In this document: in pieces, positions 5,943 through 43,014 of the stretch
Position numbering within the stretch: the first letter of the stretch is position 1
How the letters are laid out: every line of letters begins with the position of its first letter
Assembly (NCBI GenBank): GCA_035304085.1
Contig: DATGQT010000028.1
Span: 1-50,962, forward strand
Direction: 5' to 3'
DNA from: Rubricoccaceae bacterium
GTDB lineage: Bacteria > Bacteroidota > Rhodothermia > Rhodothermales > Rubricoccaceae
DNA length: 50,962 bases
The notes under the pieces: generated by a model
The model's database searches: none
Told to the model about the DNA's origin: nothing
The model's input: only the letters and a program-made list of their open reading frames with translations
Program-made: the position numbers and the translations under genes

Positions 5943-6326
5943 GGGAGTGGGGGTGGGTGAGAGGCACGCCCGGCCGCGTGGAGCGGGGCGGGCGAGGGAC
6001 CGGGGATAAGCTACCGGGGCGGACGGCGGGGGGGATTACGCCGGTGTTAAGCACGCGCGGCGCAGGGTGAGAGCGTGCCTATGAGGGCTGATCGTTCCCC
6101 CTCCCCCTGCGCAGCGGGGGGAGGACCCATTCATAAGACAGGCTCTGAGGGTCCCGGCGGCCTCCGAGGGCGTGATCTTTGCCGCGCGGTAGCGGCGGCG
6201 GCCGGAAAGGGCGAACTTCGCCCCGCGGCGGCCGTAAGGCACGAAGCCGAGCGCGTCCCGCGTTCGCCCGCCGTCCCCCTTTTGCGCCATCGGCGCCCGC
6301 TTTCGCGACCCACCCGCCCCCGCCCC

Positions 6327-11777: not shown

Positions 11778-11821
11778 CCATCCGACCTTCGACGCTTGGA
11801 CCCCAGACCTGAGACCCCCCG
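11744..11821. repeat. Word-hairpin element E6 (word GAAGGTC)
   Basis: In GGTCGAACGTCAAATGTCGAAGGTCGAAGGTTGACCATCCGACCTTCGACGCTTGGACC, GTCGAAGGTCG pairs with CGACCTTCGAC. It overlaps the 3' end of the dehydrogenase ORF. Confidence 0.7.
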
Positions 11822-13160: not shown

Positions 13161-13222
13161 TTACGTGACGCGTGATTACGTGAACGCTCCCTCTCACGTA
13201 ATCACACCCTTCACGTAATCAC
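13157..13222. repeat. Word-hairpin element E7 / bidirectional terminator (12-mer GTGATTACGTGA, two direct plus two inverted copies)
   Basis: GTGATTACGTGA lies at 13157-13168 and 13172-13183. Its exact complement TCACGTAATCAC lies at 13194-13205 and 13211-13222. The element sits between the convergent stop codons at 13160 and 13225. Confidence 0.85.
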
Positions 13223-13224
13223 GT

Positions 13225-15044: not shown

Positions 15045-15172
15045 GGGGGACCAGGGTGGGGAACGGGAATGGAGCCAACCATACGACCGCCGCGCCGCCG
15101 GGCTCCGGGGGAGCGGTACGATCAGGCGTCGCCGCAGGGGGCACAGCCGTTATCGGCCGGGCGCGCGCGGAC

Positions 15173-15230
15173 ATAAAAAAGGCGCCGGCGCGGCCTGTAA
15201 GACCCCACCACGAGTCCAGGCCGCGCCGGC
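15173..15230 (-). terminator. Intrinsic terminator (minus strand)
   Basis: The 14-bp GC stem GCCGGCGCGGCCTG (15184-15197) / CAGGCCGCGCCGGC (15217-15230) is followed on the minus strand by GCCTTTTTTAT. Confidence 0.6.
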
Positions 15231-15390
15231 TTTCCCACCACCAGCGTGGGCTCGTGCCCGCTGGTTCTGTAGAGATCTCGTCTCCCTGCGGGGGTAACCG
15301 GTGACCCCCCTCTGGAGACGACGCCCCTATAGACACGGGTGACCGGCGAGATCTAACTCCTCCGGCCAACTTTTTTTTCGGACCGCCCCT
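15231..15390 (-). ncRNA. Candidate structured RNA or 5' leader upstream of that terminator (class unknown)
   Basis: Nested perfect helices: GAGATCTCG/CGAGATCTC encloses CGTCTCC/GGAGACG, which encloses GGGGGT..ACCCCC. There is also a CCAGC-GGGC-ACGA-GCCC-GCTGG hairpin. The 376-bp gap has no credible ORF. Strand is inferred only from the terminator. Confidence 0.35.
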
Positions 15391-22636: not shown

Positions 22637-24415
22637 TCAGCGGCCGGAGCCGAGCGCGCTCGTGTCGAACGCGGCGAGGGCCACCTCGTGCGCGAACGTC
22701 TCCCCGGTGACCTGGAGCGTGTACGTGTCCGAGGGGAGCCCCTCGCCGAAGACCTCGAACGCCTCGGCCGTCCCGGCGTCGAGCGTCCCGTCGAAGACGG
22801 TCTTGACGCGGCGGCCGTCGCCGTCGACGACGTCGAGGCGGATCTGCTGCCCCTCGGCCACGGTCACGGCCACGCGGAGCGTGCCGCCGCGCTCACCCGG
22901 GTAGGGCTGCGAGACGCGGAAGTTCTCGGGCGCGGCGACGACGGCCTCGGCGGCGGCGCTCACCTGGATCCGCCCGTCGGCGCCCAGCTGGACGAGGCGG
23001 AAGGCGTGGCGGCCGGGGCTGAGCCCCTCGACGTGGTACTCCGGCGCGGCCGTGGCCGGGAGCGTGGCTACGGTGAGGAAGGGGCCGCCCTCGTGGCTGC
23101 GCTGGAGGGTGAGGGGCTCGCCGGAGTTCCGCTCCACCACCCACGTCACGTCCGCCGCCCCCTCCTCGACGGTGACGTCGAAGCGGGAGAGGTTGAGCGA
23201 CGTCGTGGCCGTGGGGCGGACGACGAACAGCCCGCCCTCGATCCCGCTGACGACGATGGACCCGCTCGCGAAGTAGGGGTAGACGCTCCACGCGCCGTTG
23301 AACTGGGCGTCGTCGGTCTCGGGGTAGATGTCGAAGAAGGCGACCTGCCGGATCTGGCCGGCCTCGATCCCGCTGATGTCGAGGACGCGGAGGCCGGAGG
23401 CGTAGTTGGCCTGGTAGACGCGGTCGCCGAGGACGTAGAGGTTGTGGTCGGCGCTGCCGACGGGGGCCTCGAAGATCGTGAGGAGCTCGGGGCTGTCGAG
23501 GTCCTCGAGGTCGAAGGCCATCGTGCGCGTGCGCTCGGAGAACCCCTGGATCTCGTCGAGCTCGTCGTCGGCGAGGAAGTAGCGGTGGTCCTCGGTGAAC
23601 CACCCCTGGTGGGTGTACCCCGGCGTGGGGTAGGTGCCCTGGGCGATCTGGACGGGGTTCGCCTTGTCCGTCACGTCCACGATGGTGATGGTGTCCTCGT
23701 TGGAGCCGACGCAGATCTCGCGGCCCTGGTAGTCGGGGTCGGGGCCGCGGTAGATCACGCACTGGGCGTCGTGCGAGTAGCCGTCCTCGTCGAAGCACCC
23801 GGCGAACTGGGGGTTCAGCGGCTCCCGGATGTCGATCATGTAGAGGCCGCCGGCGCACTCCTGCGCGCCGATGGGGTAGGCGAACCCGGACTCCTCGTTG
23901 ATGGCGATGTTGTGGGCGCTGCCGAGGGGGGTCTCGTCGGGGCCGGTGTACGTGACGTCGGCCTCGAACGTGCGGGCGGGGTCGTGGTCGAGGCCGCGGA
24001 GGCGGGTGAGGTCGAACACCTGCATCCCGTGGGCCGGCGCCTCGCTGACGACGAAGGCGTGGTCGCGGTAGACCTTGATGTCGCGCCAGATCGAGGGCTC
24101 GGTGGCGGTGGGGAGCTTCCCGAGGTTGATCGGGTGGGCGGGGTCGGTGACGTCGACGAACCCGGTGCCGTCGTTGAGCCCGACGAGGGCGTACTCGCGG
24201 CCGGTCTCGGGGTCGGTCCACCCCCAGATGTCGTTGCCGGAGCCGGAGCCGAAGTCCTCGAGCGAGACGTGGCTGATGAGGTCCATGCCGTCGCAGGCGT
24301 ACGCGCCGGCGTGGCCGTCGGTGCAGGGGAGGGGCTGGGCCGAGGCGGCGCTGGCGAGGCCGAGGGCCAGCACGGCGGCGCCGAGGGCCAGCCCGGAGGC
24401 GGGGCGTGTGGTCAT
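22637..24415 (-). CDS. Choice-of-anchor-B / LVIVD-like beta-propeller protein, paralog A (extra Ig-like domain plus a T9SS-CTD-like end)
   Basis: Start at ATG 24415 with a signal peptide. Family hallmarks are PCTDGHAGAYACDGMDL, NDIWGWTDPETGREYALVG and WRDIKVY. It also has SAHN, YSHDAQC, YTHQGWFTED and DHNLY. The family name comes from memory of the motif pattern. Confidence 0.75.
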   Translation of the reverse strand: MTTRPASGLALGAAVLALGLASAASAQPLPCTDGHAGAYACDGMDLISHVSLEDFGSGSGNDIWGWTDPETGREYALVGLNDGTGFVDVTDPAHPINLGKLPTATEPSIWRDIKVYRDHAFVVSEAPAHGMQVFDLTRLRGLDHDPARTFEADVTYTGPDETPLGSAHNIAINEESGFAYPIGAQECAGGLYMIDIREPLNPQFAGCFDEDGYSHDAQCVIYRGPDPDYQGREICVGSNEDTITIVDVTDKANPVQIAQGTYPTPGYTHQGWFTEDHRYFLADDELDEIQGFSERTRTMAFDLEDLDSPELLTIFEAPVGSADHNLYVLGDRVYQANYASGLRVLDISGIEAGQIRQVAFFDIYPETDDAQFNGAWSVYPYFASGSIVVSGIEGGLFVVRPTATTSLNLSRFDVTVEEGAADVTWVVERNSGEPLTLQRSHEGGPFLTVATLPATAAPEYHVEGLSPGRHAFRLVQLGADGRIQVSAAAEAVVAAPENFRVSQPYPGERGGTLRVAVTVAEGQQIRLDVVDGDGRRVKTVFDGTLDAGTAEAFEVFGEGLPSDTYTLQVTGETFAHEVALAAFDTSALGSGR

Positions 24416-24566
24416 GGTATGACGGACGAGTAGGGCCGCGGTGGGGGCCGGGTGGAGGGGGCGGCGAGCGCCGGGGCCGATCCAACGGCCGGGCCGGCGC
24501 CGCTGTTGCGTGGTCCTGGCGAGAGAGCCCGCGTGCGGACCCCGGCCAGCGACGTTCGAGCGGCGG

Positions 24567-26072
24567 CTAGTGTACGAGCGAGAGGCGGCGGGTTGCGGTG
24601 AAGTCCGGGCCCGTGACGCGGACGAGGTAGAGCCCGGCGGGGAGGTCGGCCCCGTCCACCGCCAGCACCAGCGGCGCCGACGGCGCGGCCGGCCCCTCGT
24701 AGAGGAGGGCGACGCGGCGGCCACGGAGGTCGAGCACCTCGGCGACGACCTCGACCGGCTCCGGCACCGTGAGCGTGAGCGTGCTCCGGCCGTCGGCCGG
24801 GTTCGGCACCGGCGCGCTGAGGACGGTGTGGGCCTGCGGGGCCGACGGCTCGGCGGCCGAGGGGAGGAGGTCCGTCTGTAGCACGAACAGCCCGTTGTCG
24901 CGGTCGTTGGCGATGATGGTCCCGCTCGCGAAGAACGGGTAGTTGCTCCACTGCCCGTCGTACGACTCCCCGTTGCCCTGGGGGTACGTGTCGAAGCTGC
25001 CCACCTCGACGAGCGTGCCGTCGTCGATGCCGGAGAGGTCGAGGATGCGGAGGCCGCCCTCGTAGTTCGAGAGGAAGGCGTGGTTGCCGCGGATGTAGAG
25101 GTTGTGGTCGGTGGTCTCGATGGGACCGAAGTAAGTGAATGCGAACTCGGGGTTGTCGAGGTCCTCCACGTTGAAGATGAGCGTCCGCGTCGTCGGGGAG
25201 ACGGAGTCGTCGAGCTCGTCGTCGACGAGGAAGTAGCGGAAGTCCTCGGTGAACCAGCCCTGGTGGGTGTACCAGGGCTCCGGGTAGAACCCCCGGCTGA
25301 TGGGCTCGGGGTTCGCCTTGTCCTCCACGTCCACGATCACGATGTGGTTCTCGTTCGAGCCGACGCAGATCTCCTTCCCCTGGTGGTCGGGGTCCGGCCC
25401 GGCGTAGGTGACGCACTGGGCGTCGTGGGAGTACCCGTCGTCCGGGTAGCAGCCGGCTTCGACGGGGTTCAGCGGGTCCCGGACGTCCACGATGTAGAGG
25501 CCGCCCGAGCACTGGAACGAGCCGACGACGTAGGCGAACCCACTCTCGGTGTCGATGGCGACGTTGTGGGCGCTGCCGAACCCGGTGAACCGGGCGTCGT
25601 GGGTGAACGTGACCGGCGGGCTCGCCACGTCGCGGAGCCGCGTGAGGTCGAAGACCTGGAGGCCGTGGCTGCCGGCGTTGTCGGCGACGACGAAGGCGTG
25701 GTCGGCGTAGACCTTGATGTCGCGCCAGGTGGAGGCGTCGGTGGCGGTGGGGAGCTTGCCGAGGTAGACCGGCGCCGTGGGCTCGGTCACGTCCACGAAC
25801 GCGGTGCCGTTGGTGAGGCCGACGAGGGCGTATTCCCGCCCGGTCTGGGGATCGGTCCACCCCCAGATGTCGTTGCCGCGGGAGGGGACGACGGGGCCGA
25901 AGGTCGAGAGCGGGAGGTTGGCCAGGAGGTCCACGCCCTCGCACGGGTAGTTGCCCGCGAAGCCCCCCTCGCAGGGGGTCTGTGCCCGCGCGGGGACGGC
26001 GGTGAAGACGCAGAGGGCGAGCGCCGCGAGGAAGGCGGCGCCGCTGAAGGCCGGGAGAGGGCGGGAGGGCAT
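24567..26072 (-). CDS. Choice-of-anchor-B / LVIVD-like beta-propeller protein, paralog B, with a T9SS CTD
   Basis: Start at ATG 26072 with a signal peptide. It has the same motif set as paralog A. The C-terminus is PVPNPADGRSTLTL...LPAGLYLVRV...RRLSLVH. Confidence 0.78.
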   Translation of the reverse strand: MPSRPLPAFSGAAFLAALALCVFTAVPARAQTPCEGGFAGNYPCEGVDLLANLPLSTFGPVVPSRGNDIWGWTDPQTGREYALVGLTNGTAFVDVTEPTAPVYLGKLPTATDASTWRDIKVYADHAFVVADNAGSHGLQVFDLTRLRDVASPPVTFTHDARFTGFGSAHNVAIDTESGFAYVVGSFQCSGGLYIVDVRDPLNPVEAGCYPDDGYSHDAQCVTYAGPDPDHQGKEICVGSNENHIVIVDVEDKANPEPISRGFYPEPWYTHQGWFTEDFRYFLVDDELDDSVSPTTRTLIFNVEDLDNPEFAFTYFGPIETTDHNLYIRGNHAFLSNYEGGLRILDLSGIDDGTLVEVGSFDTYPQGNGESYDGQWSNYPFFASGTIIANDRDNGLFVLQTDLLPSAAEPSAPQAHTVLSAPVPNPADGRSTLTLTVPEPVEVVAEVLDLRGRRVALLYEGPAAPSAPLVLAVDGADLPAGLYLVRVTGPDFTATRRLSLVH

Positions 26073-26089
26073 CGGAGCCGAGGGCGGGG

Positions 26090-27613
26090 TCAGTGGACGA
26101 GGGCGGCGCGGCGGGTGGCGGTGAAGTCCTCGCCGACGACGCGGACGAGGTAGAGGCCGGCTGGGAGCGCCGTCGCATCGAGGATCAGAGTTAGGGGGGC
26201 GCCGGCGGCGACGGGGCCGTCGTGGAGGACGGCGACGCGGCGGCCGGCCACGTCGAGCACCTCGGCCGTGACCGCCTGCGTCCGCGCGACCGAGAGCCGG
26301 AGGGTGATCCTCGAACGGAACGGGTTGGGCACCGGGGCGCTCAGGGCGAAGCCGGCGTCGCCGGGCGCCTCCGGCTCCGCCGCCGTCGTCGGCAGGTTCG
26401 GCCGCAGGACGAACAGGCCGTAGTCCGTGTCGTTGGCGACGACGGTGCCGCTCGGGAAGAACGGGTAGTTGCTCCACTGCCCCATCGTCCCGCTCGCGTC
26501 GGTGTCCCAGTACGTGTCGAAGTAGGCGACCTCGGTGACGAGGTCGTCGTCGATGCCGGAGAGGTCGAGGATGCGGAGGCCGGTGGTGTAGTTGGAGAGG
26601 TAGGCGTAGTGGCCGCGGATGTAGAGGTTGTGGTCCGACGACGGGAGCTCGCTGAAGTAGAAGAAGTCGAACTCGGGGTCGTCGAGGTCGGTGAGGTCGA
26701 AGACGATGGTGCGGGTGTTCGACGTGAGCCCGGTGATCTCGTCGAGCTCGTCGTCGACGAGGAAGTAGCGCTGGTCCTCGGTGAACCACCCCTGGTGGGT
26801 GTAGGCGGGATTCGGGTAGAACCCCCGGCTGATGAGGACGGGGTTCGCCTTGTCCGTCACGTCGGTGAGGGTGAGGGTGTCCTCGTTCGAGGAGACGCAG
26901 ACCTGTCGGCCCTGGTAGTCGGGGTCGGGGCCGCGGTAGACCACGCACTGCGTGTCGTGGGTGTAGCCGTCCTCACCGAAGCAGCCGGCCTGCGTGGGGT
27001 TCAGCGGGTCCCGGATGTCCACGATGTAGAGCCCGCCCTCGCATTCGCCGGAGCCGACGGCGTAGGCGAACCCGCTCTCGGTATCGATGGCGATGTTGTG
27101 GGCGCTGCCGAGGGGGGCGTCGTCGGGGCCGGTGAAGTGGGCGTCGGCCTCGAACGTGACCGGCGGGCTCGCCACATCGAGGAGCCGCGTGAGGTCGAAC
27201 ACCTGCATCCCGTGCTCGGAGGCCTCGCTGACGACGAAGGCGTAGTGACCGTACGTCTTGATGTCGCGCCAGAACGAGGACTCGGTGGCGGTGGGGAGCT
27301 TCCCGAGGTAGACGGGGTTCACGGGGTCGGTGACCTCGACGAAGGCGGTGCCGTCGAGGAGGCCGACGAGGGCGAACTCCCGCCCGCTGTCGGGGTCGGT
27401 CCAGCCCCAGATGTCGTTGCCGTAGAACGTGCCGAACGTGCCGTGCGGGAGGTGCGCGTAGAGGTCCACGCTCCCACAGGGGAAGTTGTTGAAGGATGTG
27501 CCGGGGTTGCCGTCCTCGTCGGCGACGCCGCTCTGGCAGGTGACGAGGCCCTGGGCGCGGGGAGTCGCAGCGAGGGCGAGGAGGGCGAACACAACGGCGA
27601 AGGCGGCGCGCAT
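26090..27613 (-). CDS. Choice-of-anchor-B / LVIVD-like beta-propeller protein, paralog C, with a T9SS CTD
   Basis: Start at ATG 27613 with a signal peptide. The N-terminus is CQSGVADEDGNPGTSFNNFPCGSVDL. The C-terminus is PVPNPFRSRITLRL...LPAGLYLVRV...RRAALVH. It lies 17 nt from paralog B. Confidence 0.78.
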   Translation of the reverse strand: MRAAFAVVFALLALAATPRAQGLVTCQSGVADEDGNPGTSFNNFPCGSVDLYAHLPHGTFGTFYGNDIWGWTDPDSGREFALVGLLDGTAFVEVTDPVNPVYLGKLPTATESSFWRDIKTYGHYAFVVSEASEHGMQVFDLTRLLDVASPPVTFEADAHFTGPDDAPLGSAHNIAIDTESGFAYAVGSGECEGGLYIVDIRDPLNPTQAGCFGEDGYTHDTQCVVYRGPDPDYQGRQVCVSSNEDTLTLTDVTDKANPVLISRGFYPNPAYTHQGWFTEDQRYFLVDDELDEITGLTSNTRTIVFDLTDLDDPEFDFFYFSELPSSDHNLYIRGHYAYLSNYTTGLRILDLSGIDDDLVTEVAYFDTYWDTDASGTMGQWSNYPFFPSGTVVANDTDYGLFVLRPNLPTTAAEPEAPGDAGFALSAPVPNPFRSRITLRLSVARTQAVTAEVLDVAGRRVAVLHDGPVAAGAPLTLILDATALPAGLYLVRVVGEDFTATRRAALVH

Positions 27614-27623
27614 GGCGGGGCGA

Positions 27624-29147
27624 TCAGTGGACGAGGGAAGCGCGGCGGGCGGCGGTGAAGTCCTCGCCGACGACGCGGACGAGGTAGAGCCCCGACGGGA
27701 GCGCACGCCCGTCGAGCCGGAGCACGAGCGGGGCGCCGGCCGCGACGGGCGCGTCGTGGAGGACGGCGACGACGCGCCCGGCGGCGTCGAGGGCCTCGGC
27801 GCGGACGCGCTGCGAGCGGGCGACGGTGAGGCGGAGGGTGGCCTCGCCGCGGGACGGGTTGGGCACCGGGGCGCTCAGGGCGAAGCCGGCGTCGCCGGGC
27901 GCCTCGGGCTCCGCCGCCGTCGTCGGCAGGTTCGGCCGCAGGACGAACAGCCCGTTGTTCTGGTCGTTGGCCACGACGGTCCCGCTCGGGAAGAACGGGT
28001 AGTTGCTCCACTGCCCGTCCCACCCCTCGGGCGACTGGCGCGTCGGCTCGCTGTCGAAGTAGGCGGCCTCGGCGAGGGTGCCGTCCTCGATCCCGGAGAG
28101 GTCGAGGATGCGGAGGCCGCCGTCGTAGTTGCTCTGATACGCGTACTGGCCCTTCACGTAGAGGTTGTGGTCGCGGGTCGGGACCTCCCCGAGGTGCGCG
28201 AAGGCGAACTCGGGGTTGTCGAGGTCCGAGACGTCCATGACGAGGGTGCGCGTCCCGCCCGAAGAGGAGTCGAGCTCGTCGTCGGCGAGGATGTAGCGGA
28301 AGTCGTCGGTGAACCAGCTCTGGTGCGCGTAACCGGGGTTGGGGTAGTAGACGCGGCTGATGAGGACGGGGCTCGCCTTGTCCGTCACGTCCACGAACAC
28401 GAAGTGGTCGCCGCTGCCGAACGAGCTGCCCTGGGAGCCGACGCAGATCTGGCGGCCGGCGTAGTCGGCGTCGGGCCCCTCGTAGACGAGGCACTGCGCG
28501 TCGTGGGTGTACCCGTCGGAGCCGAAGCAGCCGGCCTGCGTGGGGTTCAGCGGGTCCCGGACGTCCACGATGTAGAGGCCACCCGAGCACTCGTCGGAGC
28601 CGACGGCGTAGGCGAACCCGCTCTCGGGGTCGACGGCGACGTTGTGGGCGCTGCCGAACCCGGTGAACCGGGCGTCGTGCGTGAACGTGACCGGCGGGCT
28701 CGCCACGTCGAGCAACCGGGTGAGGTCGAAGATCTGGAGGCCGTGGTTGTTCGCCTCGCTGACGACGAAGGCGTGGTCGGCGTACGTCTTGATGTCGCGC
28801 CAGGTCGAACTCGACGTGGCGGTGGGAAGCTTGCCGAGGTAGACGGGGGCGTTGGGGTCGGTGACCTCGACGAAGGCGGTGCCGTTGTCGAGGCCGACGA
28901 GGGCGAACTCCCGCCCGCTCGGGGCGTGGGTCCAACCCCAGATGTCGTTGCCGTAGTTGGTGCCGAACGTGCCGTGCGGGAGGTGCGCGTAGAGGTCGAC
29001 GCTCCCACAGGGGAAGTTGTTGAAGGGCGTGCCGGGGTTGCCGTCCTCGTCGGCGACGCCGCTCTGGCAGGTGACGAGGCCCTGGGCGTGGAGGGCCGGG
29101 GCGAAGACGAGGGCGGCGAAGGCGGCGAGGAGGAACGGCAGGCGCAT
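27624..29147 (-). CDS. Choice-of-anchor-B / LVIVD-like beta-propeller protein, paralog D, with a T9SS CTD
   Basis: Start at ATG 29147 with a signal peptide. It is 507 aa, like paralog C, and shares near-identical DNA patches with C. The C-terminus is ...LPSGLYLVRV...RRASLVH. It lies 10 nt from paralog C. Confidence 0.78.
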   Translation of the reverse strand: MRLPFLLAAFAALVFAPALHAQGLVTCQSGVADEDGNPGTPFNNFPCGSVDLYAHLPHGTFGTNYGNDIWGWTHAPSGREFALVGLDNGTAFVEVTDPNAPVYLGKLPTATSSSTWRDIKTYADHAFVVSEANNHGLQIFDLTRLLDVASPPVTFTHDARFTGFGSAHNVAVDPESGFAYAVGSDECSGGLYIVDVRDPLNPTQAGCFGSDGYTHDAQCLVYEGPDADYAGRQICVGSQGSSFGSGDHFVFVDVTDKASPVLISRVYYPNPGYAHQSWFTDDFRYILADDELDSSSGGTRTLVMDVSDLDNPEFAFAHLGEVPTRDHNLYVKGQYAYQSNYDGGLRILDLSGIEDGTLAEAAYFDSEPTRQSPEGWDGQWSNYPFFPSGTVVANDQNNGLFVLRPNLPTTAAEPEAPGDAGFALSAPVPNPSRGEATLRLTVARSQRVRAEALDAAGRVVAVLHDAPVAAGAPLVLRLDGRALPSGLYLVRVVGEDFTAARRASLVH

Positions 29148-29189
29148 GCGGAAACCGGGTGTGGTGTGAGGCGAGGGCAAGCAGCGGAA

Positions 29190-29203
29190 GCTAAACAATT
29201 AGC
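29190..29203 (-). promoter_or_regulatory. AT-rich 5-4-5 palindrome in the presumed promoter region of the four-gene array
   Basis: GCTAA-ACAA-TTAGC is the only AT-rich island in the 114-bp gap, about 45 nt upstream of ATG 29147. The minus strand reads GCTAATTGTTTAGC. Confidence 0.3.
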
Positions 29204-29261
29204 AGGCGCGCGTGCGGGGAGAAAAAGTGGACCTGCCGGACCGTCGGCGGCCAGCCCGCCG

Positions 29262-29774
29262 TCACGGCCGCGTCGGGTCTCCGACGGCCTCGAACCGGTT
29301 CCGCTCCCGGTTCTTCCGCACGGCCTCCGGCCGGAACACGCACCCGTTCATCGTCACGTAGACGCCGGGCGGGAGCGTCTGCACGGCCGCCGCCGCGAAG
29401 CCCACGTTGAACTCGGCGTCGGTGGCCTTGAACCGGGCCGGGGTGAGGGAGCCGACGAGGACGACGGTCTTCGAGGGCGCGGGGCCGAGCGCCTCGGCCA
29501 CGGCCTTCGCCGTCTCCACCATCGTGTCGGTGCCGTGGGTGAGGATGACGCGGTCGGCCTCGGCCCTCGCCACGCGCTCGGCGATGAAGGCGCGGTCGGC
29601 GTCGGTGAGGTCGAGGCTGTCCTTCTGCATGAGCGCCTCGACGGCGTACGTGAACGCGACGCCGGCGGCCCGGAGGATCTCGGTGACCTGGGGCTCGCCG
29701 ACCTCGTACTCGCTCCGGGCGTCGAAGTACACCTTGTCGATGGTGCCGCCGGTGGTGAAGATCTGGACGTGCAT
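29262..29774 (-). CDS. Short asparaginase-family protein (N-terminal catalytic domain only)
   Basis: MHVQIFTTGGTIDK (the TGGTI nucleophile motif) and ILTHGTDTMVETA (the HGTDT motif). At 170 aa it lacks the C-terminal domain of type I/II asparaginases. Confidence 0.75.
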   Translation of the reverse strand: MHVQIFTTGGTIDKVYFDARSEYEVGEPQVTEILRAAGVAFTYAVEALMQKDSLDLTDADRAFIAERVARAEADRVILTHGTDTMVETAKAVAEALGPAPSKTVVLVGSLTPARFKATDAEFNVGFAAAAVQTLPPGVYVTMNGCVFRPEAVRKNRERNRFEAVGDPTRP

Positions 29775-29936
29775 CGGTCAGTGGTCCGTGGTCAGTGGTC
29801 CGTGGTCAGTGGTCCGTGGTCAGTGGTCAGTGGTCAGTGGTCAGTGGTCAGTGGTCAGTGGTCAGTGGGGCAAGGACGGGACGGGAGAAGTTCCCCTGTC
29901 TTCTGCCCTCTGTCTTCTGACCCCTGACCCCTGGAC
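29775..29936. repeat. Element E8: 13-unit heptamer tandem array plus conserved core plus pyrimidine word arm
   Basis: 29776-29866 is (GGTCAGT GGTCCGT)x3 then (GGTCAGT)x7. It is followed by GGGGCAAGGACGGGACGGGAGAAGTTCCCCTGTCTTCTGCCCTCTGTCTTCTGACCCCTGACCCCTGGACC. The array ends 1 nt from ATG 29774 of the downstream (minus-strand) gene. Confidence 0.9.
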
Positions 29937-30332
29937 CTACCGGCGCAGGGCCTCGAGGCGGTCCGCGACGAGGCGGTAGAGGGCAGCGGCCTCGTCGGGG
30001 CGGTGGGCGACGGCGGCGAGGCGGGCGGCGACGGAGGCGGAGTCGAGGCCGGTGGTGCGGCGGACGTGGGCGTAGGCGGCGGCGCGGAGGCTATCGGCGT
30101 CCTCGCCGGTGGCGTCGGCGCGGGCGTCGGCGAGGTGGAGGGGGACGAGGGCGTCGGCGAGGAGGCTGTCGGGGGTCACCTCGGGCTCGGCGTCGCCGGG
30201 GCCCCCGCCGCACCCGAGGAGCAGGAGGAAAAGCGCCAGCGCGCAAGCACGGGGGCGTGCAAGCGGGCAGGCGTGCGCTCGTGCGCTCCTGTGCGCCCGC
30301 TCGCTTGCGTGCCCGCTCGCTTGCGCGCTCAT
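29937..30332 (-). CDS. Small lipoprotein of unknown function
   Basis: Lipobox LFLLLLGCGG. The only in-frame start is ATG 30332, which overlaps the upstream stop. The first 30 codons are read from element E15. Confidence 0.55.
   Translation of the reverse strand: MSAQASGHASERAHRSARAHACPLARPRACALALFLLLLGCGGGPGDAEPEVTPDSLLADALVPLHLADARADATGEDADSLRAAAYAHVRRTTGLDSASVAARLAAVAHRPDEAAALYRLVADRLEALRR
30241..30330. repeat. Word-hairpin element E15 (word GCAAGCG), embedded in the 5' end of a CDS
   Basis: GCGCAAGC...GTGCAAGCGGGCAGG (left) is answered by GCCCGCTCGCTTGCGTGCCCGCTCGCTTGCGCGC (right, a direct duplication of GCCCGCTCGCTTGCG). Confidence 0.6.
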
Positions 30333-30658
30333 GCGAGCAGCCCCTCCGGCACGTCCACCTCCATGCGGAGCAGGCGGGCGGCGTAGGTCTTCCCCTGCGC
30401 ATCGAGCTTGAGGGAGACAGTCCCGCCGCCGCCGAGGGCCTCGTGGAGGAGGAAGTTGAGGGCGTAGAGGTTCGGGAGCTCGAACCGCTCGACCGTGCCC
30501 TGCACGGCGGGGCCGAAGTGGGCCTTCACGCGCTCGGGCGTGACGGTCTCACGGAGGAAGTCGTAGTAGGCCGGGTCGCGCGCGATGAGGCCGACGTTGA
30601 CGGCGTCGCCCTTGTCGCCGCTGCGGGCGTGGGCCAGTTCGAGGAGGCGCTTCTTCAT
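30329..30658 (-). CDS. Stand-alone AtuA C-terminal-like protein
   Basis: Start at ATG 30658. HARSGDKGDAVNVGLIAR...LPNLYALNFLLHEALGGGGTVSLKLDAQGKTYAARLL resembles the C-terminal module of acyclic-terpene-utilisation AtuA/DUF1446 proteins. This assignment is from memory and is tentative. Confidence 0.55.
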   Translation of the reverse strand: MKKRLLELAHARSGDKGDAVNVGLIARDPAYYDFLRETVTPERVKAHFGPAVQGTVERFELPNLYALNFLLHEALGGGGTVSLKLDAQGKTYAARLLRMEVDVPEGLLA

Positions 30659-30687
30659 CGGGACGGGAGAAAGGGGAAGGTGCAATG

Positions 30688-31797
30688 TTACGTCGGGGCC
30701 GGGCCGTCGGCCGTGCGGAACGTCCGCGCGATGACCTCGAGCTGGCGGAGGAACTCCCGCTTGTTCCCGCTGAACCGGTGCTGCGGCGCGTACACCATCC
30801 CGAAGACGACGTAGAGCCGCCGCTGCGCGGGGTCGTAGAAGCTGTAGCGGACGAACGGGCCGCCCATGAAGTCCTCCGTCATCCGCCAGAGCCCGCGCGT
30901 CTCGCGCGCCGGCCGCCCCGCGAGCACCACCGAGTCCGTCCGGATCGGTCGCGCGCGGTCGATCCGGACGAACGAGGAATCGTACCCCCCCCGCACGAAC
31001 GTCTCCAGCAGCCGGTCCGTCACGTGCTCGACGTAGGCGGTGTCGAGGCGCTCGGCCGCCGCGCCGTCCTCGTAGTAGACCCAGAGGTCGCGCCAGGTGT
31101 CGGACAGGACGCGGCGGAGGCGGACGTAGTGGCCCGGCAGCCCGGCCGGCGCCGCCGTGGTGTCCTGCGAGACGAAGTAGTCGTGCTGGACGTTGACCGT
31201 GAACCCGTGGGCGTCGAGGAGGGAGTCCTCGACGGCGGTCTGCCGCTGGCGGCTGAACATGTCCTCGTGGAGGCGGGCCAGCGTGGCGCCGGTGAACAGC
31301 GTGCGGAGGGTGTCGGCGTGCTGGCGGAAGGCGTCGGCGAGGAGGGAGTCCGAGCCGGCGGCGGCGAGGACGACGATCTGCCCGGTCGCCCACACGTCGC
31401 GGCGGGGGACGACGAAGGCGCCGCGCCCCTCGCGCACGAGGCGGGCGCCGGCCGAGTCGAGGCGGGCCTCGAGGAAGCGGGCCACGGCGCTGGTGTCGTC
31501 GAGGGCGGCGGCGAAGATGACGTGGCGCTGGCGGCGGAGGAGGTCGAACCCCTCGCTCGTGAGCTCCCGCCGCCGCAACTGGAAGTCGGCGATGTTGAGG
31601 GGCGGGGCGATGGAGCGCCCGAGCGTCGCGCGGAGCGCCTCGCCGACGGGCCCCGCCCACGTCATCGAGTCGGTGACGACGACGACCTCGCCGGGGTCGC
31701 CGACGGCGTTGGGGACGTGGGGGTGGAGCGGCTCGTCGCACGCGGCCAGGCCGAGGGCGAGGCCGAGGGCGAGCGCGGGGAGGAGACGGGGGAGCAT
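30688..31797 (-). CDS. DUF4837-like lipoprotein
   Basis: Start at ATG 31797 with a lipobox (LALGLAACD). The overall pattern (VVVVTD..W.G.VG..L, later FRxL..R) matches my recollection of the Bacteroidota DUF4837 family. Confidence 0.6.
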   Translation of the reverse strand: MLPRLLPALALGLALGLAACDEPLHPHVPNAVGDPGEVVVVTDSMTWAGPVGEALRATLGRSIAPPLNIADFQLRRRELTSEGFDLLRRQRHVIFAAALDDTSAVARFLEARLDSAGARLVREGRGAFVVPRRDVWATGQIVVLAAAGSDSLLADAFRQHADTLRTLFTGATLARLHEDMFSRQRQTAVEDSLLDAHGFTVNVQHDYFVSQDTTAAPAGLPGHYVRLRRVLSDTWRDLWVYYEDGAAAERLDTAYVEHVTDRLLETFVRGGYDSSFVRIDRARPIRTDSVVLAGRPARETRGLWRMTEDFMGGPFVRYSFYDPAQRRLYVVFGMVYAPQHRFSGNKREFLRQLEVIARTFRTADGPAPT

Positions 31798-31895
31798 GCA
31801 GGGGGAGGGTCGGTCAGCGGGGTGCGGGGATCTCCGGCGGGGAGAGCCCGAGGGTCTAACGTTCGCACCCCCGTCGAGCGTTCGCGCCCGCGCGG

Positions 31896-32369
31896 TCATC
31901 GGCCGCGGGTGTAGAGGTCGGGTCGGTCGATGACCATGAACCGCTCGGGGAACGGGGCGCGGACGAACCCCGCTTTCTCGTAGAGGCCGTGGGCGTCCTG
32001 CGTCGTGAGGAGGATGCGGCGGAGGCCCTGGAGGTCGGGGTGCGCGAGGACGCACGCCGTCAGCCACTGCCCGAGGCCGCGGCCCCGGTGGGCGTCGAGG
32101 ACGAACACGTCGGCGAGGTAGGCGAACGTGGCCCGGTCCGTGACCACGCGCGCGAAGCCGACCTGCGCCTCGCCCTCCGGCGCCCGGTGGTAGAGCCCGA
32201 AGGGGAGGGCGTAGCGCACCGACCGCTCGACGACGTCCCTCGGCACGCCCCGCGCCCAGTACGAGTCCTCCGACAGGAAGCGGTGGACGACGTCGAGGTC
32301 CAGCCGGGCGGGGTCGGTGGAGACCACGTAGCCGTCCCGCTCGTGGGTGACGACGGCGAAGGGTTCCAT
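31896..32369 (-). CDS. GNAT-family N-acetyltransferase
   Basis: The acetyl-CoA site is VFVLDAHRGRGLGQWL, followed by AHGLYEKAGF. Confidence 0.85.
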   Translation of the reverse strand: MEPFAVVTHERDGYVVSTDPARLDLDVVHRFLSEDSYWARGVPRDVVERSVRYALPFGLYHRAPEGEAQVGFARVVTDRATFAYLADVFVLDAHRGRGLGQWLTACVLAHPDLQGLRRILLTTQDAHGLYEKAGFVRAPFPERFMVIDRPDLYTRGR

Positions 32370-32399
32370 CAGGCGCAGAGGGTCAGGCAGGCGCGGGGG

Positions 32400-33047
32400 T
32401 CAGGCGGCGGTGGCGGCGCGGAAGGCGTCGAAGAAGGCGTCGAGGCGGTCGAAGTCCATCGCCCCCGGCGCCGCCTCGACCGAGGGGCCGAGGTCGAGGG
32501 CGTACGGCCGCATCGCGGCGACGGCCCCGGCCACGTTGCCCGCCGTGAGATCGCCGGCGAGGAAGAGGGCGAAGTCGCGGGCGAGGTCGCGGACGGTCCG
32601 CCAGCTGAGGCTCTCGCCCGGCCCGTCCCACAGCCCCGTCCCCGCGGTGTCGAGGCGGACGAACGCGGCGGCGTCGCGGTAGACCTCTACCAGCGCGCGG
32701 AGTTGCTCGGCCGAGGCGTCGTGCCGCACGCGGAACGTCTTGACGACGGGGACGGCGACGGCGGCGCAGGCCTCGGGCGGCTCGTGGCCGTCGAGGCGGA
32801 CGAGGCGGAAGCCGGCCGCCTCCACGGCGCGGTTCACCTCCTCGGGCGGCGCGTCGGTGAACGCGCCCACGGGCTCCGGCCCCATCACCCACGCCATGAC
32901 CTCCCGCACCCGCTCCGGCGGCACGTAGCGCGGGCTGGCGGGGTCCTGGTCGAAGGCGAGGTAGTCCGCGCCCATCGCCGCGGCGAACCGGGCGTCTTCG
33001 AGGCGGGTGATGCCGGAGAGGCTGATCCTGGGGTTCGCTGCGCTCAC
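32400..33047 (-). CDS. trpF: Phosphoribosylanthranilate isomerase
   Basis: ISLSGITRLEDARFAAAMGADYLAF at the N-terminus and a (beta/alpha)8-type length. The GTG start at 33047 overlaps the trpG stop (GTGA). Confidence 0.8.
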   Translation of the reverse strand: MSAANPRISLSGITRLEDARFAAAMGADYLAFDQDPASPRYVPPERVREVMAWVMGPEPVGAFTDAPPEEVNRAVEAAGFRLVRLDGHEPPEACAAVAVPVVKTFRVRHDASAEQLRALVEVYRDAAAFVRLDTAGTGLWDGPGESLSWRTVRDLARDFALFLAGDLTAGNVAGAVAAMRPYALDLGPSVEAAPGAMDFDRLDAFFDAFRAATAA

Positions 33048-33691
33048 GTCGGAAGGTCCAAGGTCTGAAGGTCGAAGGTCGGTGGACGGGGCTCGGACGT
33101 CCGACCTTCAGACCCGGGACCCGCGACGGCGAAGCGTACCCAGTTCGCGACGATCCGCGGCCCCTCCGTCGTCAGCACGCTCTCGGGGTGGAACTGGACG
33201 CCCTCGACGGGGAAGCGGCGGTGGCGGAGGCCCATGATCGTGCCGTCGTCGGTCCACGCCGAGACCTCCAGCGCCTCCGGCAGCGCGGCCCGGTCGGCCA
33301 CGAGGGAGTGGTAGCGCGTGGCGAGGAAGCCCTGCGCGACGCCCTCGAAGACCCCCCGGCCGTCGTGGCGGACGCGGCTGGTCTTGCCGTGGACGGGCGC
33401 CGGCGCGTGGACGACGCGCCCGCCGTAGACCTCGGCCATCGCCTGGAGGCCGAGGCAGACGCCGAGGACGGGCGTCGTCGGGCCGAGGCGGCGGAGGAGG
33501 GCCTCCGAGATGCCGGCGTCGGCCGGGCGGCCCGGGCCGGGCGAGATGAGGATGCCCGCCGGCGCCATCGCCGCCACGTCCTCGACCGTCACCGCGTCGT
33601 TCCGCACCACCACCACCTCGCCCGCAGCCGCCTCGACGAGGTGGACGAGGGTGTACGTGAACGAGTCGTAGTTGTCGAGGACGAGGATCAT
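33044..33691 (-). CDS. trpG: Anthranilate (or aminodeoxychorismate) synthase glutamine-amidotransferase subunit
   Basis: MILVLDNYDSFTYTLV, nucleophile elbow GVCLGLQ, and the catalytic HPES. The last 25-28 codons (AVAGPGSEGRTSEPRPPTFDLQTLDLPT) are read through element E9. Confidence 0.88.
   Translation of the reverse strand: MILVLDNYDSFTYTLVHLVEAAAGEVVVVRNDAVTVEDVAAMAPAGILISPGPGRPADAGISEALLRRLGPTTPVLGVCLGLQAMAEVYGGRVVHAPAPVHGKTSRVRHDGRGVFEGVAQGFLATRYHSLVADRAALPEALEVSAWTDDGTIMGLRHRRFPVEGVQFHPESVLTTEGPRIVANWVRFAVAGPGSEGRTSEPRPPTFDLQTLDLPT
33048..33121. repeat. Word-hairpin element E9 (word GAAGGTC), inside the trpG 3' end
   Basis: GTCGGAAGGTCCAAGGTCTGAAGGTCGAAGGTCGG is answered by CGGACGTCCGACCTTCAGACCCGGGACC. 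GGTCTGAAGGTCGG pairs with CCGACCTTCAGACC. Confidence 0.75.
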
Positions 33692-41350: not shown

Positions 41351-41466
41351 GGTCCGTGGTCCGTGGTCCGTGGTCCGTGGTCCGTGGTCCGTGGTCCGTG
41401 GTCCGTGGGGGAAGGGCGGGGCGGGAGAAGTTCCTCTGACCTCTGCCTTCTGACCCCTGTCTTCTG
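41351..41466. repeat. Element E12: 8-unit heptamer array plus the same conserved core as E8
   Basis: 41351-41406 is (GGTCCGT)x8, starting immediately after the ATG (41350-41348) of the minus-strand gene. It is followed by GGGGGAAGGGCGGGGCGGGAGAAGTTCCTCTGACCTCTGCCTTCTGACCCCTGTCTTCTGTC. Confidence 0.9.
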
Positions 41467-43014
41467 TCAACTGATCTTGCGTCGCCAGCGGGTGCCCTCG
41501 GGCGTGTCCATCACCTCGACGCCGAGGGCGTCGAGCTCGGCGCGGATGGCGTCGGCGCGGGGCCAGTCCCGCGCGGCACGCGCCTCGGCGCGCTGCACGA
41601 GGAGGGCCTCCACCTGCGTCGCCAGCCCGTCCGTCTCGGGCTGCGCCGGTTCTGCGGCGACCTCCTCGTGGCGGACGATGCCGAGGAGGGCGTTGATCCG
41701 GTCGAGGAAGTCGGCGGCGGAGCGGGCGGCGGCGGCGGAGAGGGGCGCCCGGTGGTGCTCTCCGAGTACGGCGCCGACGCCGCGGTAGGCGGCGGCGAGG
41801 GCCTCGGGCGTGTTGAGGTCGTCGCACATCGCCGCGAGGGCGTCGTCGTAGGCCTGCCGGAGCGGCCCGGCCAGGCGGTCCTCGCCCTCGCGACCCGCCG
41901 CAAGCGCCTCCTCGGCCACGCGCGCGGCCTCCTCGATGCGCTGGCGCTGCTTCTGCGCGTCCTTGAGCGCCTTCCGCGTGAAGTTGAACGGCTGGCGGTA
42001 GCTGCCCTGGAGGAGCGCGAGGCGGAGGGCCAGCGGGTCCACGGGCGCGCCCCAGTCGGCCCGCCCGCCCGCCTCCGGCGGCGCCGTCAGGTCGCGGACG
42101 GTGAGGAAGTTGCCGAGCCGCTTGCTCATCTTCTCGCCCTCGACGAGCAGGAAGCGGGTGTGTATCCAGTGGCGGGCGAAGGGCTGCCCGGAGAGGGCCT
42201 CCGCCTGCGCGATCTCGCACTCGTGGTGGGGGAACCGGAGGTCCTCACCACCCCCGTGGAGGTCTATCGTCTCGCCGAGGTACTGCTGCGCCATCACGGA
42301 GCACTCGAGGTGCCAGCCGGGGAAGCCCCAGCCGAAGGGGGAGTGCCACTGCATGAGGTGGCCGGGGTCCTTCTTCCAGAGCGCGAAGTCGCGGGGGTCC
42401 CGCTTCTGCTCGTCCACGACGACGGCGCGCGAGGCGGCGGCGGCGCCGACGTCGAGCTGCTCGGCCTCGGTGTTGCCGGAGAGCTTGCCGTAGTCGGGGA
42501 AGGAGGGGACGTGGAAGTAGACGCCGTCGTCGGTCTCGTAGGCGTGGCCCTTCCGCACGAGCGCCTCGGTGGCGAGGATCTGCTCGCGGACGTGCTCGGT
42601 GGCGCGGGGGCGGACGGTGGGCTCGCGGAGGTTGAGCGCGCGCCAGTCGGCCTCGAGGGCGGCGGTGTAGTGGCGCGCGAGGTCCCACACGTTGGCGAAC
42701 CGCTCGCCCTCCTTGCTCGCCAGCGCCTTCGCCATGCGGTCCTCGCCCGCGGCGTCGGCCACGTCGTCCTCCGTCAGGTGGCCGACGTCGGTGACGTTGG
42801 AGACGTAGCGGACGGCCCACCCCAGCGCCTCGGCCACCCGCACGACGAGGTCGGCCGTGAGGAACGTGCGGAAGTTGCCGATGTGGGCGTAGGAGTAGAC
42901 CGTCGGCCCGCACGAGTAGAACCGGAGGACGGGCGTGCCGTCGGCGGTCCGCTCCGAGGGAACGAGCGGGCGGGTCTGCCGGGTGAGGGAGTCGTAGAGG
43001 AGGAAGTCGGGCAC
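41467..43014 (-). CDS. cysS: Cysteine--tRNA ligase
   Basis: The GTG start at 43014 lies 7 nt after the sufE stop. HIGH-type motif (YAHIGNFR) and KMSKR (EKMSKRLGN). Upstream codons in the track ORF are artefactual. Confidence 0.9.

Follow-up and report, generated by a model that had tools for sequence, protein, structure and literature searches.

Immediately upstream of the start codon of an asparaginase-domain gene, the 50,962-nt stretch of DNA analyzed here (the window), from a Rubricoccaceae bacterium, carries thirteen consecutive copies of a heptamer, placed where a ribosome-binding site would be sought. Is this array a genuine and variable repeat, and what could it do for the gene that it precedes?

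Layout of the array and its sister element

The array occupies 29776-29866 and is read from the minus strand. Read directly, the plus strand has three GGTCAGT-GGTCCGT pairs and then seven GGTCAGT units; in the mRNA sense, this is (ACUGACC)7 followed by three alternations of ACGGACC and ACUGACC, a G-poor sequence. TRF reports a period of 7 at 29776-29868, with 13.3 copies, 93% matches, and a score of 165. The three-unit pattern is matched 17 times in the window where 100 dinucleotide shuffles predict 0.00, an uninterrupted short-unit tandem array far above chance of the kind that defines hypermutable simple-sequence repeats. A single C at 29775 separates it from the ATG at 29774-29772 (CAT on the plus strand), and the original prediction of a 13-unit, period-7 array 1 nt from this start codon is thus confirmed. 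The gene itself (29262-29774, minus strand) encodes a 170-aa product with an asparaginase N-terminal domain (Pfam PF00710, E 2.7e-25), homologues of which in Rubricoccaceae are named asparaginase domain-containing protein. Orthologues begin with ATGCACGTCCAG or ATGCACATCCAG (MHVQ or MHIQ) and have unrelated DNA upstream; the retention of this N-terminus while the upstream DNA diverges supports ATG 29774 as the start. The array was predicted to be noncoding, and it is: with a period of 7 the frame cycles, and any 21 nt of ACUGACC repeats bring a UGA into each of the three frames. On these grounds a coding reading of the array was rejected, and a 41-aa ORF on the plus strand (29795-29920) was set aside as spurious. 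An assembly artifact can be eliminated as the source of the array, the units and flanks being reproduced in four independent assemblies from different samples.

The remainder of the spacer is equally ordered. Upstream lies a codirectional gene (29937-30332, minus strand), a 131-aa lipoprotein-like ORF taken from the ORF list, called as a gene in the metagenome contig L028, and with syntenic homologues that precede the asparaginase-domain gene in 8 relatives. Its TAG (29937-29939) directly adjoins a purine-rich 5' arm (29896-29936, minus strand), which starts immediately 3' of that stop codon and was delimited from alignment, sequence, and pairing in the minimum free energy (MFE) fold. The arm consists of six degenerate heptamers (RRGNCAG), which in the mRNA sense read GUCCAG-G, GGUCAG-G, GGUCAG-A, AGACAG-A, GGGCAG-A, and AGACAG-G, and each is complementary to an array unit over 6 bp with one mismatch. 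An arm of pyrimidine words able to pair with the array had been proposed; its complementarity holds, and we redefine the words as these six heptamers of an arm that is purine-rich in the mRNA sense. Between arm and array lies an apical core (29867-29895, minus strand), GGGAACUUCUCCCGUCCCGUCCUUGCCCC in the mRNA sense, which is common to a sister element; the two window copies align at 83% column identity. The core was expected to be conserved, and GGGRCGGGAGAAGTTCCYCTG (the GGAACTTCTCCCG core) does have two copies in the window, one at 29878 and another at 41418, where 0.03 would be expected.

The sister element, also on the minus strand, contains (ACGGACC)x8, that is (GGTCCGT)x8 on the plus strand, at 41351-41406 (TRF, 100% matches), and this array directly adjoins the ATG at 41350-41348, at a distance of 0 nt. 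It is preceded in the mRNA by a core (41407-41435) and a purine-rich heptamer arm (41436-41466), both assigned from sequence and alignment, and together the three parts fill the whole spacer between the TGA of cysS (41467-41469; identified by Pfam tRNA-synt_1e in contig L151) and the ATG of a 167-aa gene.

Unit-number variation and recurrence of the layout

The original prediction held that the unit number may vary and proposed looking for heterogeneity in other sequences. Natural sequences supply it. Contig L028 (ENA ERZ27256727) matches window positions 27409-33332 at 99.9% identity, with 4 SNPs over 5.9 kb, and the sole indel in this alignment is a 21-nt, three-unit gap inside the array. 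Writing T for ACUGACC and G for ACGGACC, the ten units of L028 run T7,G,G,T, against T7,G,T,G,T,G,T for the thirteen of the window; a contig from a second sample, L001, has the same ATG-proximal order as L028 (T,G,G,T). In L029, from another sample, the sister array counts 10 units, against 8 in the window and in L151. This exact 14-nt insertion is, apart from an unaligned contig end, the only indel in a 3.2-kb alignment at 98.8% identity, and L151 and L030 both lack it. As a caveat, these contigs were assembled from short reads, although the k of 141 that we infer from their names exceeds the length of the arrays (70-91 nt). Unit number is polymorphic between near-identical genomes, as in hypermutable simple-sequence repeats, and the array is a genuine hypermutable heptanucleotide repeat whose length changes in natural populations by gain and loss of whole 7-nt units.

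The layout of stop codon, purine-rich heptamers, loop, G-poor heptamers, and start codon is found at about ten junctions in the window. All five junctions of the porin-pstS-pstC-pstA-pstB-phoU block (737-4919, minus strand) have it, at 737-855, 1729-1809, 2707-2781, 3745-3839, and 4836-4919, each with its own short-period unit: GTGAAAA, GGTCGAA, GGCACTG, GGGAGAGT, and ACACGCA. Upstream of a PRA-isomerase (trpF-like) gene (33048-33125, minus strand), (GACCUUC)x4 adjoins the GTG start and a complementary GAAGGUC arm lies upstream of it. The spacer from an isocitrate/isopropylmalate dehydrogenase-family gene to a DUF4293 gene (11735-11821) carries the design on the plus strand, with the purine arm (GUCGAAG) 5' and the G-poor arm (GACCUUC...) 3', adjoining the ATG, which shows that the polarity follows gene direction. 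The polarity is strict: every start-adjacent period-7 array (11/11) is poor in G when read in the sense of its gene, and in codirectional spacers the G of G-C pairs lies on the 5' side in 30 cases vs 4 (p 6e-6). The units differ from junction to junction (CUUUUCA, GACCUUC, CCCAGUG, CGUACCC, and UCACUCA in the mRNA). The same design is found in Rubrivirga litoralis F394, which has (GGGTACG)4...(CGTACCC)4-ATG at L009 697-783, in a Chthoniobacterales MAG, and, as a (CTCACCCG)3 leader, in front of the orthologous gene of an 88% relative. Close relatives that lack the element have spacers of 8, 18, 40, and 55 nt in front of the asparaginase-domain gene (the 55- and 18-nt values coming from gene coordinates alone), and the relatives' leaders of 8, 18, 40, 55, and 89 nt are unrelated in sequence. 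The central 12-mer of the core had no match among 27 loci (25 from relatives and 2 short contigs of the same species). A metagenome scan with the 15-base core pattern AGRGGAACTTCTCCCG returned at least 120 loci, a count uninformative on family size, and BLAST of the whole elements against the loci listed gave only chance matches of 18-21 nt.

Start regions, predicted folding, and possible roles of the array

The array does occupy the region where a ribosome-binding site was expected. It does not displace such a site: over positions -10 to -1 of 132 predicted starts, C makes up 0.51 and G 0.20 of the bases, and SD-like 4-mers are depleted, at 10/132 starts vs 20/132 in a control window. Since the start regions of this lineage have no Shine-Dalgarno signal and are C-rich and G-poor, the array has no ribosome-binding site to displace; it takes the usual leader of the lineage to an extreme. 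Ribosomes of Bacteroidia ignore SD sequences and leader structure tunes initiation, as shown for that class only (PMC7797042, PMC6847099).

In folding predictions the sense strand of the array is almost unstructured. The 91-nt array has an MFE of -3.9 kcal/mol in the sense and -29.8 in the antisense orientation, while 400 random 91-nt windows average -37.6 and none of them (0/400) is as unstructured as the sense array; for the whole spacer, the values are -53.4 and -80.4. The hairpin between arm and array that had been anticipated is predicted, but it is confined to the ∼5 core-proximal units (43 pairs, in 6-bp blocks separated by 1x1 mismatches) and has no extra stability over dinucleotide shuffles (z -0.25; sister element, z +1.17). 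In the sister element the MFE fold leaves arm and array both unpaired, and its arm is uncompensated for the ACGGACC units, with an A·G mismatch in each. Arm-array pairing is thus not visibly conserved. Covariation between the two sister elements was considered and rejected, the T-to-G change of the sister array having no compensation in its arm. In a G·U wobble test covering 10 hairpins, 7 had less structure in the sense strand than in the antisense, with A·C as the sense-strand mismatches; this lends no support to selection on sense-strand pairing, but it fits selection against G in the leader. When the unit number was varied in silico, the mean probability of being unpaired over -25 to +5 was ∼0.35 at five or fewer units and 0.62-0.71 at seven or more, which suggests that predicted start-site accessibility is on a plateau from seven units onward. 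The natural 10- and 13-unit alleles would therefore differ in spacing rather than in hairpin strength, and no functional difference between them is predicted; of the two effects of copy number originally envisaged, this series favors spacing over hairpin strength. Rfam 15 gave no match at the gathering score anywhere in the window, and around the element (29834-29938) only subthreshold look-alikes of generic miRNA hairpins. Within the element, no intrinsic terminator was found in the sense (minus-strand) orientation, two matches at the core both being antisense, and no promoter-like site was found there with a sigma-70 consensus, which may not suit this phylum.

Taken together, these results suggested to us, at roughly even confidence, that the variable repeat is a single-stranded leader for SD-independent initiation and possibly part of a double-stranded RNA processing hairpin. 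Lying in the putatively transcribed spacer between two codirectional genes of a Rubricoccaceae bacterium (Rhodothermales, Bacteroidota), the array would serve as a landing or standby site for initiation of the downstream gene, and the purine arm as a partial anti-leader, masking the start region at about five or fewer units. The imperfect double-stranded RNA of the arm-array stem may in addition be a site for RNase III or for effects on stability. With the array as leader and the arm as partial anti-leader, slippage would set how much of the leader is free and how far the hairpin lies from the AUG, acting as a rheostat and not as an on/off switch. The absence of the element in close relatives also fits a dispensable sequence with fast turnover, which speaks against the leader reading.

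That last point leads to a neutral by-product, which we regard as rather unlikely but a serious contender. Slippage would create and expand heptamers wherever selection allows, here in the G-poor leader next to start codons, and neither the array nor its length would have a regulatory role. The rapid leader turnover among relatives (8, 18, 40, 55, and 89 nt, unrelated in sequence) would fit, both natural alleles sit on the predicted accessibility plateau, and the affected genes are housekeeping genes with no common theme; heptamers are, moreover, the top over-represented long repeats in many bacteria and are ascribed to polymerase slippage, as Mrazek 2007 is cited in later work (PMC4679880, PMC4692102). 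Slippage without function does not readily account for a sense array less structured than all 400 random windows. The strict polarity (11/11 arrays; 30 vs 4 spacers) and the exact fill of the spacers from stop to start call for at least purifying selection on mRNA-sense composition, and complementary purine arms at many independent loci with different units are unexplained by pure slippage.

The predicted 43-pair stem, with its 6-bp blocks split by 1x1 mismatches, raises a different and less probable possibility, one that we think doubtful: RNase III or another double-strand RNase would cut the imperfect stem of arm and repeats, separating the cistrons and setting their relative stability or translation, and cleavage may promote changes in repeat number. 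In the pst operon, as in E. coli pst, unequal expression of the cistrons would be expected, and the window has an intraoperon site of this kind at all five junctions from porin to phoU. The hmw genes of H. influenzae offer a precedent in which a heptamer repeat and a G-rich arm form an imperfect stem, one strand of which is cleaved (PMC12721329), but the order of the arms is the opposite of that here, where the repeats are the 3' arm and adjoin the AUG. The stem is also no more stable than shuffled sequence, and arm and array are predicted to be unpaired in the sister element.

It is improbable that each unit binds a single-strand RNA-binding protein, with unit number setting occupancy. bS1, cold-shock, and CsrA-like proteins, all candidates here, have been proposed to bind start-proximal TAACTGA repeats (PMC4679880), and the mRNA-sense CCACUGA shares 5/7 bases and the orientation of those repeats; a CsrA-like candidate would recognize either the GGA present in the ACGGACC units or the ACUGA common to the TAACTGA repeats. 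In a 64% orthologue (L012), degenerate CACUG words spaced 8-9 nt apart precede this gene. Other junctions have unrelated units and share only G-poor composition and period, so no single sequence-specific binder fits.

Least probable of all is the insertion of a mobile hairpin, MITE- or REP-like, into the intergenic spacer. It would suit this reading that 51 kb hold two copies, with core and arm at 83% column identity, and that the closest relatives have no such element in the orthologous spacer, but in place of many dispersed copies with defined ends or target duplications we find 2 window copies and 0 copies of the core 12-mer in 27 loci (25 from relatives), no target-site duplication or defined terminal repeats on inspection of either copy, an exact fill from stop to start by both, other junctions each with their own unit unlike a dispersed repeat family, and no transposase or RAYT gene noticed in a nonexhaustive scan of window proteins (9 and 5).

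Extending the single-stranded leader reading, we tentatively consider a broader idea that we hold to be unlikely as it stands: intercistronic modules found throughout Rubricoccaceae, and possibly in other high-GC, SD-poor lineages, might replace SD signals within operons, with the G-poor arm as landing site, the purine arm as gate, and slippage as heritable tuning. The gate could be opened by the ribosome terminating at the adjoining stop codon or by the cut of a double-strand RNase, and through heptamer slippage free-living bacteria would then have a heritable means of tuning how ordinary housekeeping genes are translated; changes in repeat number may also be driven by the RNA hairpin itself, as reported for hmw. 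To our knowledge, hmw of H. influenzae is the only heptanucleotide repeat with a worked-out mechanism. Here, hmw-like ingredients, a variable heptamer tract and a purine-rich partner arm, occur in a free-living high-GC bacterium without an SD signal, and they are placed against start codons in ordinary operons, namely in the pst block, after cysS, and at the trpF-like gene. If functional, they would show what an SD-independent initiation region is made of at 72% GC and that slippage can tune the translation of housekeeping genes outside pathogens. The presence of the same design in a cultured relative, Rubrivirga litoralis F394, makes the question directly testable.

Comparison with known repeats

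Several known systems resemble parts of this element. Like REP and BIME sequences, for which an effect on mRNA stability has been proposed, it is a predicted hairpin between genes that are presumably cotranscribed; REPs are a conserved many-copy family with a cognate RAYT transposase, whereas the repeats here are locus-specific and of short period (PMC3733652). In Moraxella catarrhalis, the AGAT repeats of the uspA2 5'-UTR are likewise located between promoter and start, where unit number grades expression; as summarized in PMC4679880, such classical phase-variable leader and promoter repeats differ in belonging to surface antigens of host-adapted pathogens, with units of 1-4 nt and SD-dependent translation. 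The cyanobacterial STRR heptamers and the G-rich heptamers of Xanthomonas (GGGAATC) and Nostoc (GGGGAYT) are also over-represented intergenic arrays of strain-variable length (PMC4692102). Some are inverted repeats that form stem-loops and some overlap start codons (PMC4692102; bioRxiv 10.1101/2022.06.06.494920), and Nostoc heptamers have been placed near start codons (bioRxiv 10.1101/2022.06.06.494920). These studies, as far as the accounts cited go, center on G-quadruplex potential or promoter effects, and describe neither a strict polarity relative to the gene nor an intercistronic stop-to-start layout.

A closer likeness is to the TAACTGA heptamers that lie within a few nucleotides of start codons in Beggiatoaceae, Cyanobacteria, and some Bacteroidetes (MacGregor 2015, PMC4679880). 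Both are tandem heptamers in the "forward" orientation a few nucleotides from the start (1 nt and 0 nt here), in spacers without a canonical ribosome-binding site; both show indels in 7-nt steps between close strains and are missing from the orthologous spacers of near relatives. The unit is not TAACTGA itself, CCACUGA and CCACGGA sharing 5/7 and 4/7 of its bases, but UAACUGA and CCACUGA both contain UGA, so that every frame is closed. One unit sequence is reused genome-wide there, while here each locus has its own; a complementary arm was not described for TAACTGA, most sets of which have 2-6 copies.

The closest parallel in architecture is the 5'-UTR of H. influenzae hmw1A/hmw2A, where (ATCTTTC)n pairs with a G-rich arm, RNase III processes the transcript, and repeat number sets expression; cleavage of the hairpin by RNase III is needed both for expression and for the change in repeat number (PMC12721329). 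Those effects are demonstrated for hmw. In each case a pyrimidine-rich heptamer repeat in a leader, here presumed to be transcribed, varies by whole units between strains. Part of the hmw repeat pairs with a G-rich arm of fixed sequence to give a long, imperfect hairpin, leaving surplus units outside the stem; for the present array the MFE fold predicts such pairing with its purine-rich arm, at no more than shuffled stability. The hmw repeats form the 5' (left) arm of a stem that ends 54 nt upstream of an SD-dependent start, whereas here the repeats form the 3' arm and reach the AUG in a lineage without an SD signal. And where hmw is a contingency locus for a pathogen adhesin, the repeats described here precede housekeeping and metabolic genes in the operons of a free-living bacterium.

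Arrays, start codons and leader structure

The main array (29776-29866) reads as 13 heptamers arranged head-to-tail, three GGTCAGT-GGTCCGT pairs and then seven GGTCAGT, and TRF gives it a period of 7, 13.3 copies, 93% matches and a score of 165; both bear out the original observation of a 13-unit array. The three-unit pattern has 17 matches in the window and 0 in 100 dinucleotide-preserving shuffles. C29775 is the sole base between the array and CAT 29772-29774, the ATG of a minus-strand gene encoding a 170-aa asparaginase N-terminal-domain protein (PF00710, E 2.7e-25). This start is secure, because the orthologues open with ATGCACGTCCAG or ATGCACATCCAG (MHVQ/MHIQ) despite unrelated upstream DNA. 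Adjoining the gene on its downstream side are four tandem minus-strand paralogues (23329-29147; 74-81% nucleotide identity, ~507 aa) with weak LVIVD-repeat matches.

The genes flanking the main element (29775-29936) and its sister element (41351-41466) are all minus-strand. Read as mRNA, the main element runs from the UAG of a 131-aa lipoprotein-like gene through a 5' arm of six degenerate heptamers (GUCCAG-G, GGUCAG-G, GGUCAG-A, AGACAG-A, GGGCAG-A and AGACAG-G), the core GGGAACUUCUCCCGUCCCGUCCUUGCCCC, (ACUGACC)7, (ACGGACC ACUGACC)3 and a single G to the AUG, and occupies the entire spacer from stop codon to start codon exactly. Arm and array are complementary over 6 bp with one mismatch per unit. 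The words first described as pyrimidine are thus complementary to the array, as had been claimed, but on the transcript they form a purine-rich heptamer arm, which in the predicted fold pairs with only the ~5 core-nearest units and leaves ~8 free before the AUG. The stability of this hairpin does not exceed that of dinucleotide shuffles (z -0.25). The core first described has another copy at 41418, within the sister element. This element repeats the layout in the spacer from cysS (stop 41467-41469) to a 167-aa gene, whose ATG directly adjoins a (GGTCCGT)x8 array (41351-41406). The ACGGACC units of this array have no compensating change in the sister arm, and its MFE structure contains no arm-array pairing at all (z +1.17).

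Protein identities of 57-81% place Rhodothermales/Rubricoccaceae MAGs and Rubrivirga litoralis as the closest genomes; the window has a GC content of 72.5%. At 132 predicted starts (window plus 12 high-GC related loci), positions -10..-1 contain C at 0.51 and G at 0.20. Shine-Dalgarno (SD)-like 4-mers precede 10/132 starts versus 20 in a control window, and the true depletion is probably stronger, since start prediction was crude. In the sister class Bacteroidia, in work that did not extend to Rhodothermia, ribosomes ignore SD sequences and initiation needs low leader structure (PMC7797042, PMC6847099). At 72% GC, dropping G is the obvious way to hold a leader unfolded. The 91-nt sense strand of the main array has a predicted folding energy of -3.9 kcal/mol versus -29.8 for its complement, and 400 random 91-nt windows average -37.6 with the least structured at -10.4; by these predictions the array is an extreme case of a G-poor unfolded leader.

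Variation between strains and relatives

Exact-protein look-up retrieved this locus from independent metagenome assemblies. The original observation and its main prediction, a variable unit number, proved correct. Contig L028 (ENA ERZ27256727, 30.9 kb) differs from window 27409-33332 by 4 SNPs and one 21-nt gap, which is the loss of three main-array units (T7,G,G,T versus T7,G,T,G,T,G,T in the window, where T is ACUGACC and G is ACGGACC). L001, from a second sample, ends inside the main array with the ATG-proximal order T,G,G,T as in L028. At the sister array, L029 (ERZ27254884) carries two extra units as an exact 14-nt insertion, L151 (ERZ27256727) is unchanged relative to the window, and L030 (Logan run SRR32080635) covers four units before its contig end, all identical. 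Three haplotypes therefore exist, and each strain comparison has a single internal indel, located in an array and with a length divisible by 7. The shorter imperfect heptamer hairpins at 33048-33125 and 30225-30334 show no length difference in the same 5.9 kb. A caveat is that the compared contigs are short-read assemblies; the k=141 inferred from contig names exceeds the array lengths (70-91 nt). Window 42145-42289 differs from L029 by ~23 substitutions in 145 nt of cysS, many spaced at multiples of 3, which looks like a short recombination tract between otherwise near-identical strains.

The upstream lipoprotein-like gene keeps its syntenic position in eight relatives, but no such conservation extends to the spacer: it measures 8 nt in a relative at 81% protein identity, 40 nt (C-rich) at 80%, 18 nt at 91% and 55 nt at 88%. 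The 162-nt main element is specific to this species-level lineage. In L153 (1412-1500, Logan assembly, 88%), where the upstream neighbour is instead 5-FTHF cyclo-ligase, an 89-nt spacer has (CTCACCCG)3 adjoining the ATG, preceded by a purine-rich arm whose period is 7-8; here the gene carries the design in another unit. The design has thus repeatedly been rebuilt from differing units. Upstream of the 64% orthologue in L012 (195-258) are degenerate CACTG words 8-9 nt apart, and upstream of that in L011 (9740-10000) are many dispersed GACCTCGAGG words, a different local repeat family.

Other junctions with the same layout

About 10 window junctions share one layout (stop, purine-rich short-period arm, loop, complementary G-poor arm, start), each with its own unit. 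In the minus-strand porin-pstS-pstC-pstA-pstB-phoU block (50-5942), stop-to-start hairpins of this kind, each with a different short-period unit, fill 5/5 intercistronic spacers (737-855, 1729-1809, 2707-2781, 3745-3839 and 4836-4919). The junction before a PRA-isomerase (trpF-like) gene also has the design, and at the plus-strand junction 11735-11821 the polarity relative to its own gene matches the minus-strand cases. Across 394 kb (window plus loci) we counted 26 period-7 arrays, 5 of them re-sampled window copies, versus 3 of period 5 and 5 of period 8; read along the gene, all period-7 arrays <=12 nt from a start (11/11) are poor in G. Among 36 co-directional spacers, G is the 5' partner of G-C pairs in 30 versus 4 (p 6e-6), an asymmetry that may largely repeat the G-poor-leader gradient.

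The cultured Rubrivirga litoralis F394 (L009) offers several clean examples (697-783, 2896-2977, 4500-4670, 5880-5980 and 15770-15802) that would be useful for experiments. These include the textbook (GGGUACG)4...(CGUACCC)4-AUG and (GUGAYGA)n...(UCACUCA)n-GUG (in DNA, (GGGTACG)4...(CGTACCC)4-ATG and (TCACTCA)n-GTG), a period-9 (GGTAGAGCA)x5 tract followed by CCCATTT repeats adjoining GTG, and (TCTTCCGC)x4-GTG at the contig end. A Chthoniobacterales MAG (Verrucomicrobiota; L026, 5585-5730) has (GUGACGA)n, a loop, (CGUCACY)n and a UUG start, so the design is not confined to Rhodothermales.

Three further window inverted repeats were noted. The 131-aa lipoprotein-like ORF, with an ATG that overlaps the TGA upstream, has within its first ~35 codons a 36-nt-arm inverted repeat (30225-30334; 16-nt unit GCCCGCTCGCTTGCGT x1.9). 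Homologues in relatives begin to align only at residue ~27-55, so the N-terminal portion may be one more intercistronic hairpin and not coding, although the signal peptide has no other in-frame ATG, GTG or TTG ahead of it. At a convergent junction (13148-13231), repeated GTGATTACGTGA / TCACGTAATCAC words form 27-nt arms, 85% complementary, which may be a bidirectional terminator or a further member of the hairpin class. A loopless palindrome with 34-nt arms (15266-15333), in the divergent intergenic region 15150-15342 with A-rich ACATAAAAAAGG nearby, may be an operator or promoter region.

Mechanism and comparison with known systems

In the sense strand, the main array is a hypermutable, G-poor, unfoldable heptamer repeat abutting the start codon, with a partial complementary arm that begins at the upstream stop codon, and this polarity is lineage-wide. 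We propose that the array would give SD-independent initiation a single-stranded leader for landing or standby, that the purine arm would mask it only when units are few, and that slippage would shift the free-leader length and the hairpin-to-AUG distance. In an in-silico unit series, mean P(unpaired) over -25..+5 was ~0.35 at <=5 units and 0.62-0.71 at >=7. Both natural alleles (10 and 13 units) sit on this predicted accessibility plateau, so if 10 and 13 units differ in effect, hairpin strength would not be the route; spacing, leader length or protein loading would. The imperfect stem is also a plausible double-strand RNase site, as in the hmw 5'-UTR of Haemophilus influenzae (PMC12721329).

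Among the rival explanations, the array may be a neutral by-product of slippage tolerated in G-poor leaders. The element may alternatively be an RNA processing element like the Haemophilus influenzae hmw 5'-UTR, where (AUCUUUC)n pairs with a G-rich arm, surplus units are left out of the stem, and RNase III makes a cut, with expression declining at higher unit numbers (PMC12721329). The units may also be putative protein-binding sites (bS1, Csp or CsrA), after the proposal made for TAACTGA repeats (PMC4679880). A mobile element has little support.

The element is best placed, as a variant, among the heptanucleotide repeats of variable length already known near start codons, and its putative function is plausible. 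Our literature search found no description of such start-adjoining heptamer modules in Rhodothermales. As a natural system the element is tractable, both for a repeat class that has been little studied and for initiation independent of SD at high GC. Its closest worked-out analogue is the hmw 5'-UTR, and its closest descriptive analogue the TAACTGA repeats, which lie in forward orientation a few nt from start codons without RBSs, show 7-nt indels between strains and are missing from close relatives' spacers (PMC4679880). In contrast to these known systems, the 3' arm here is made of the repeats and reaches the AUG, the units are locus-specific, and the modules occur within operons of housekeeping genes, in a free-living, high-GC lineage with little SD use.
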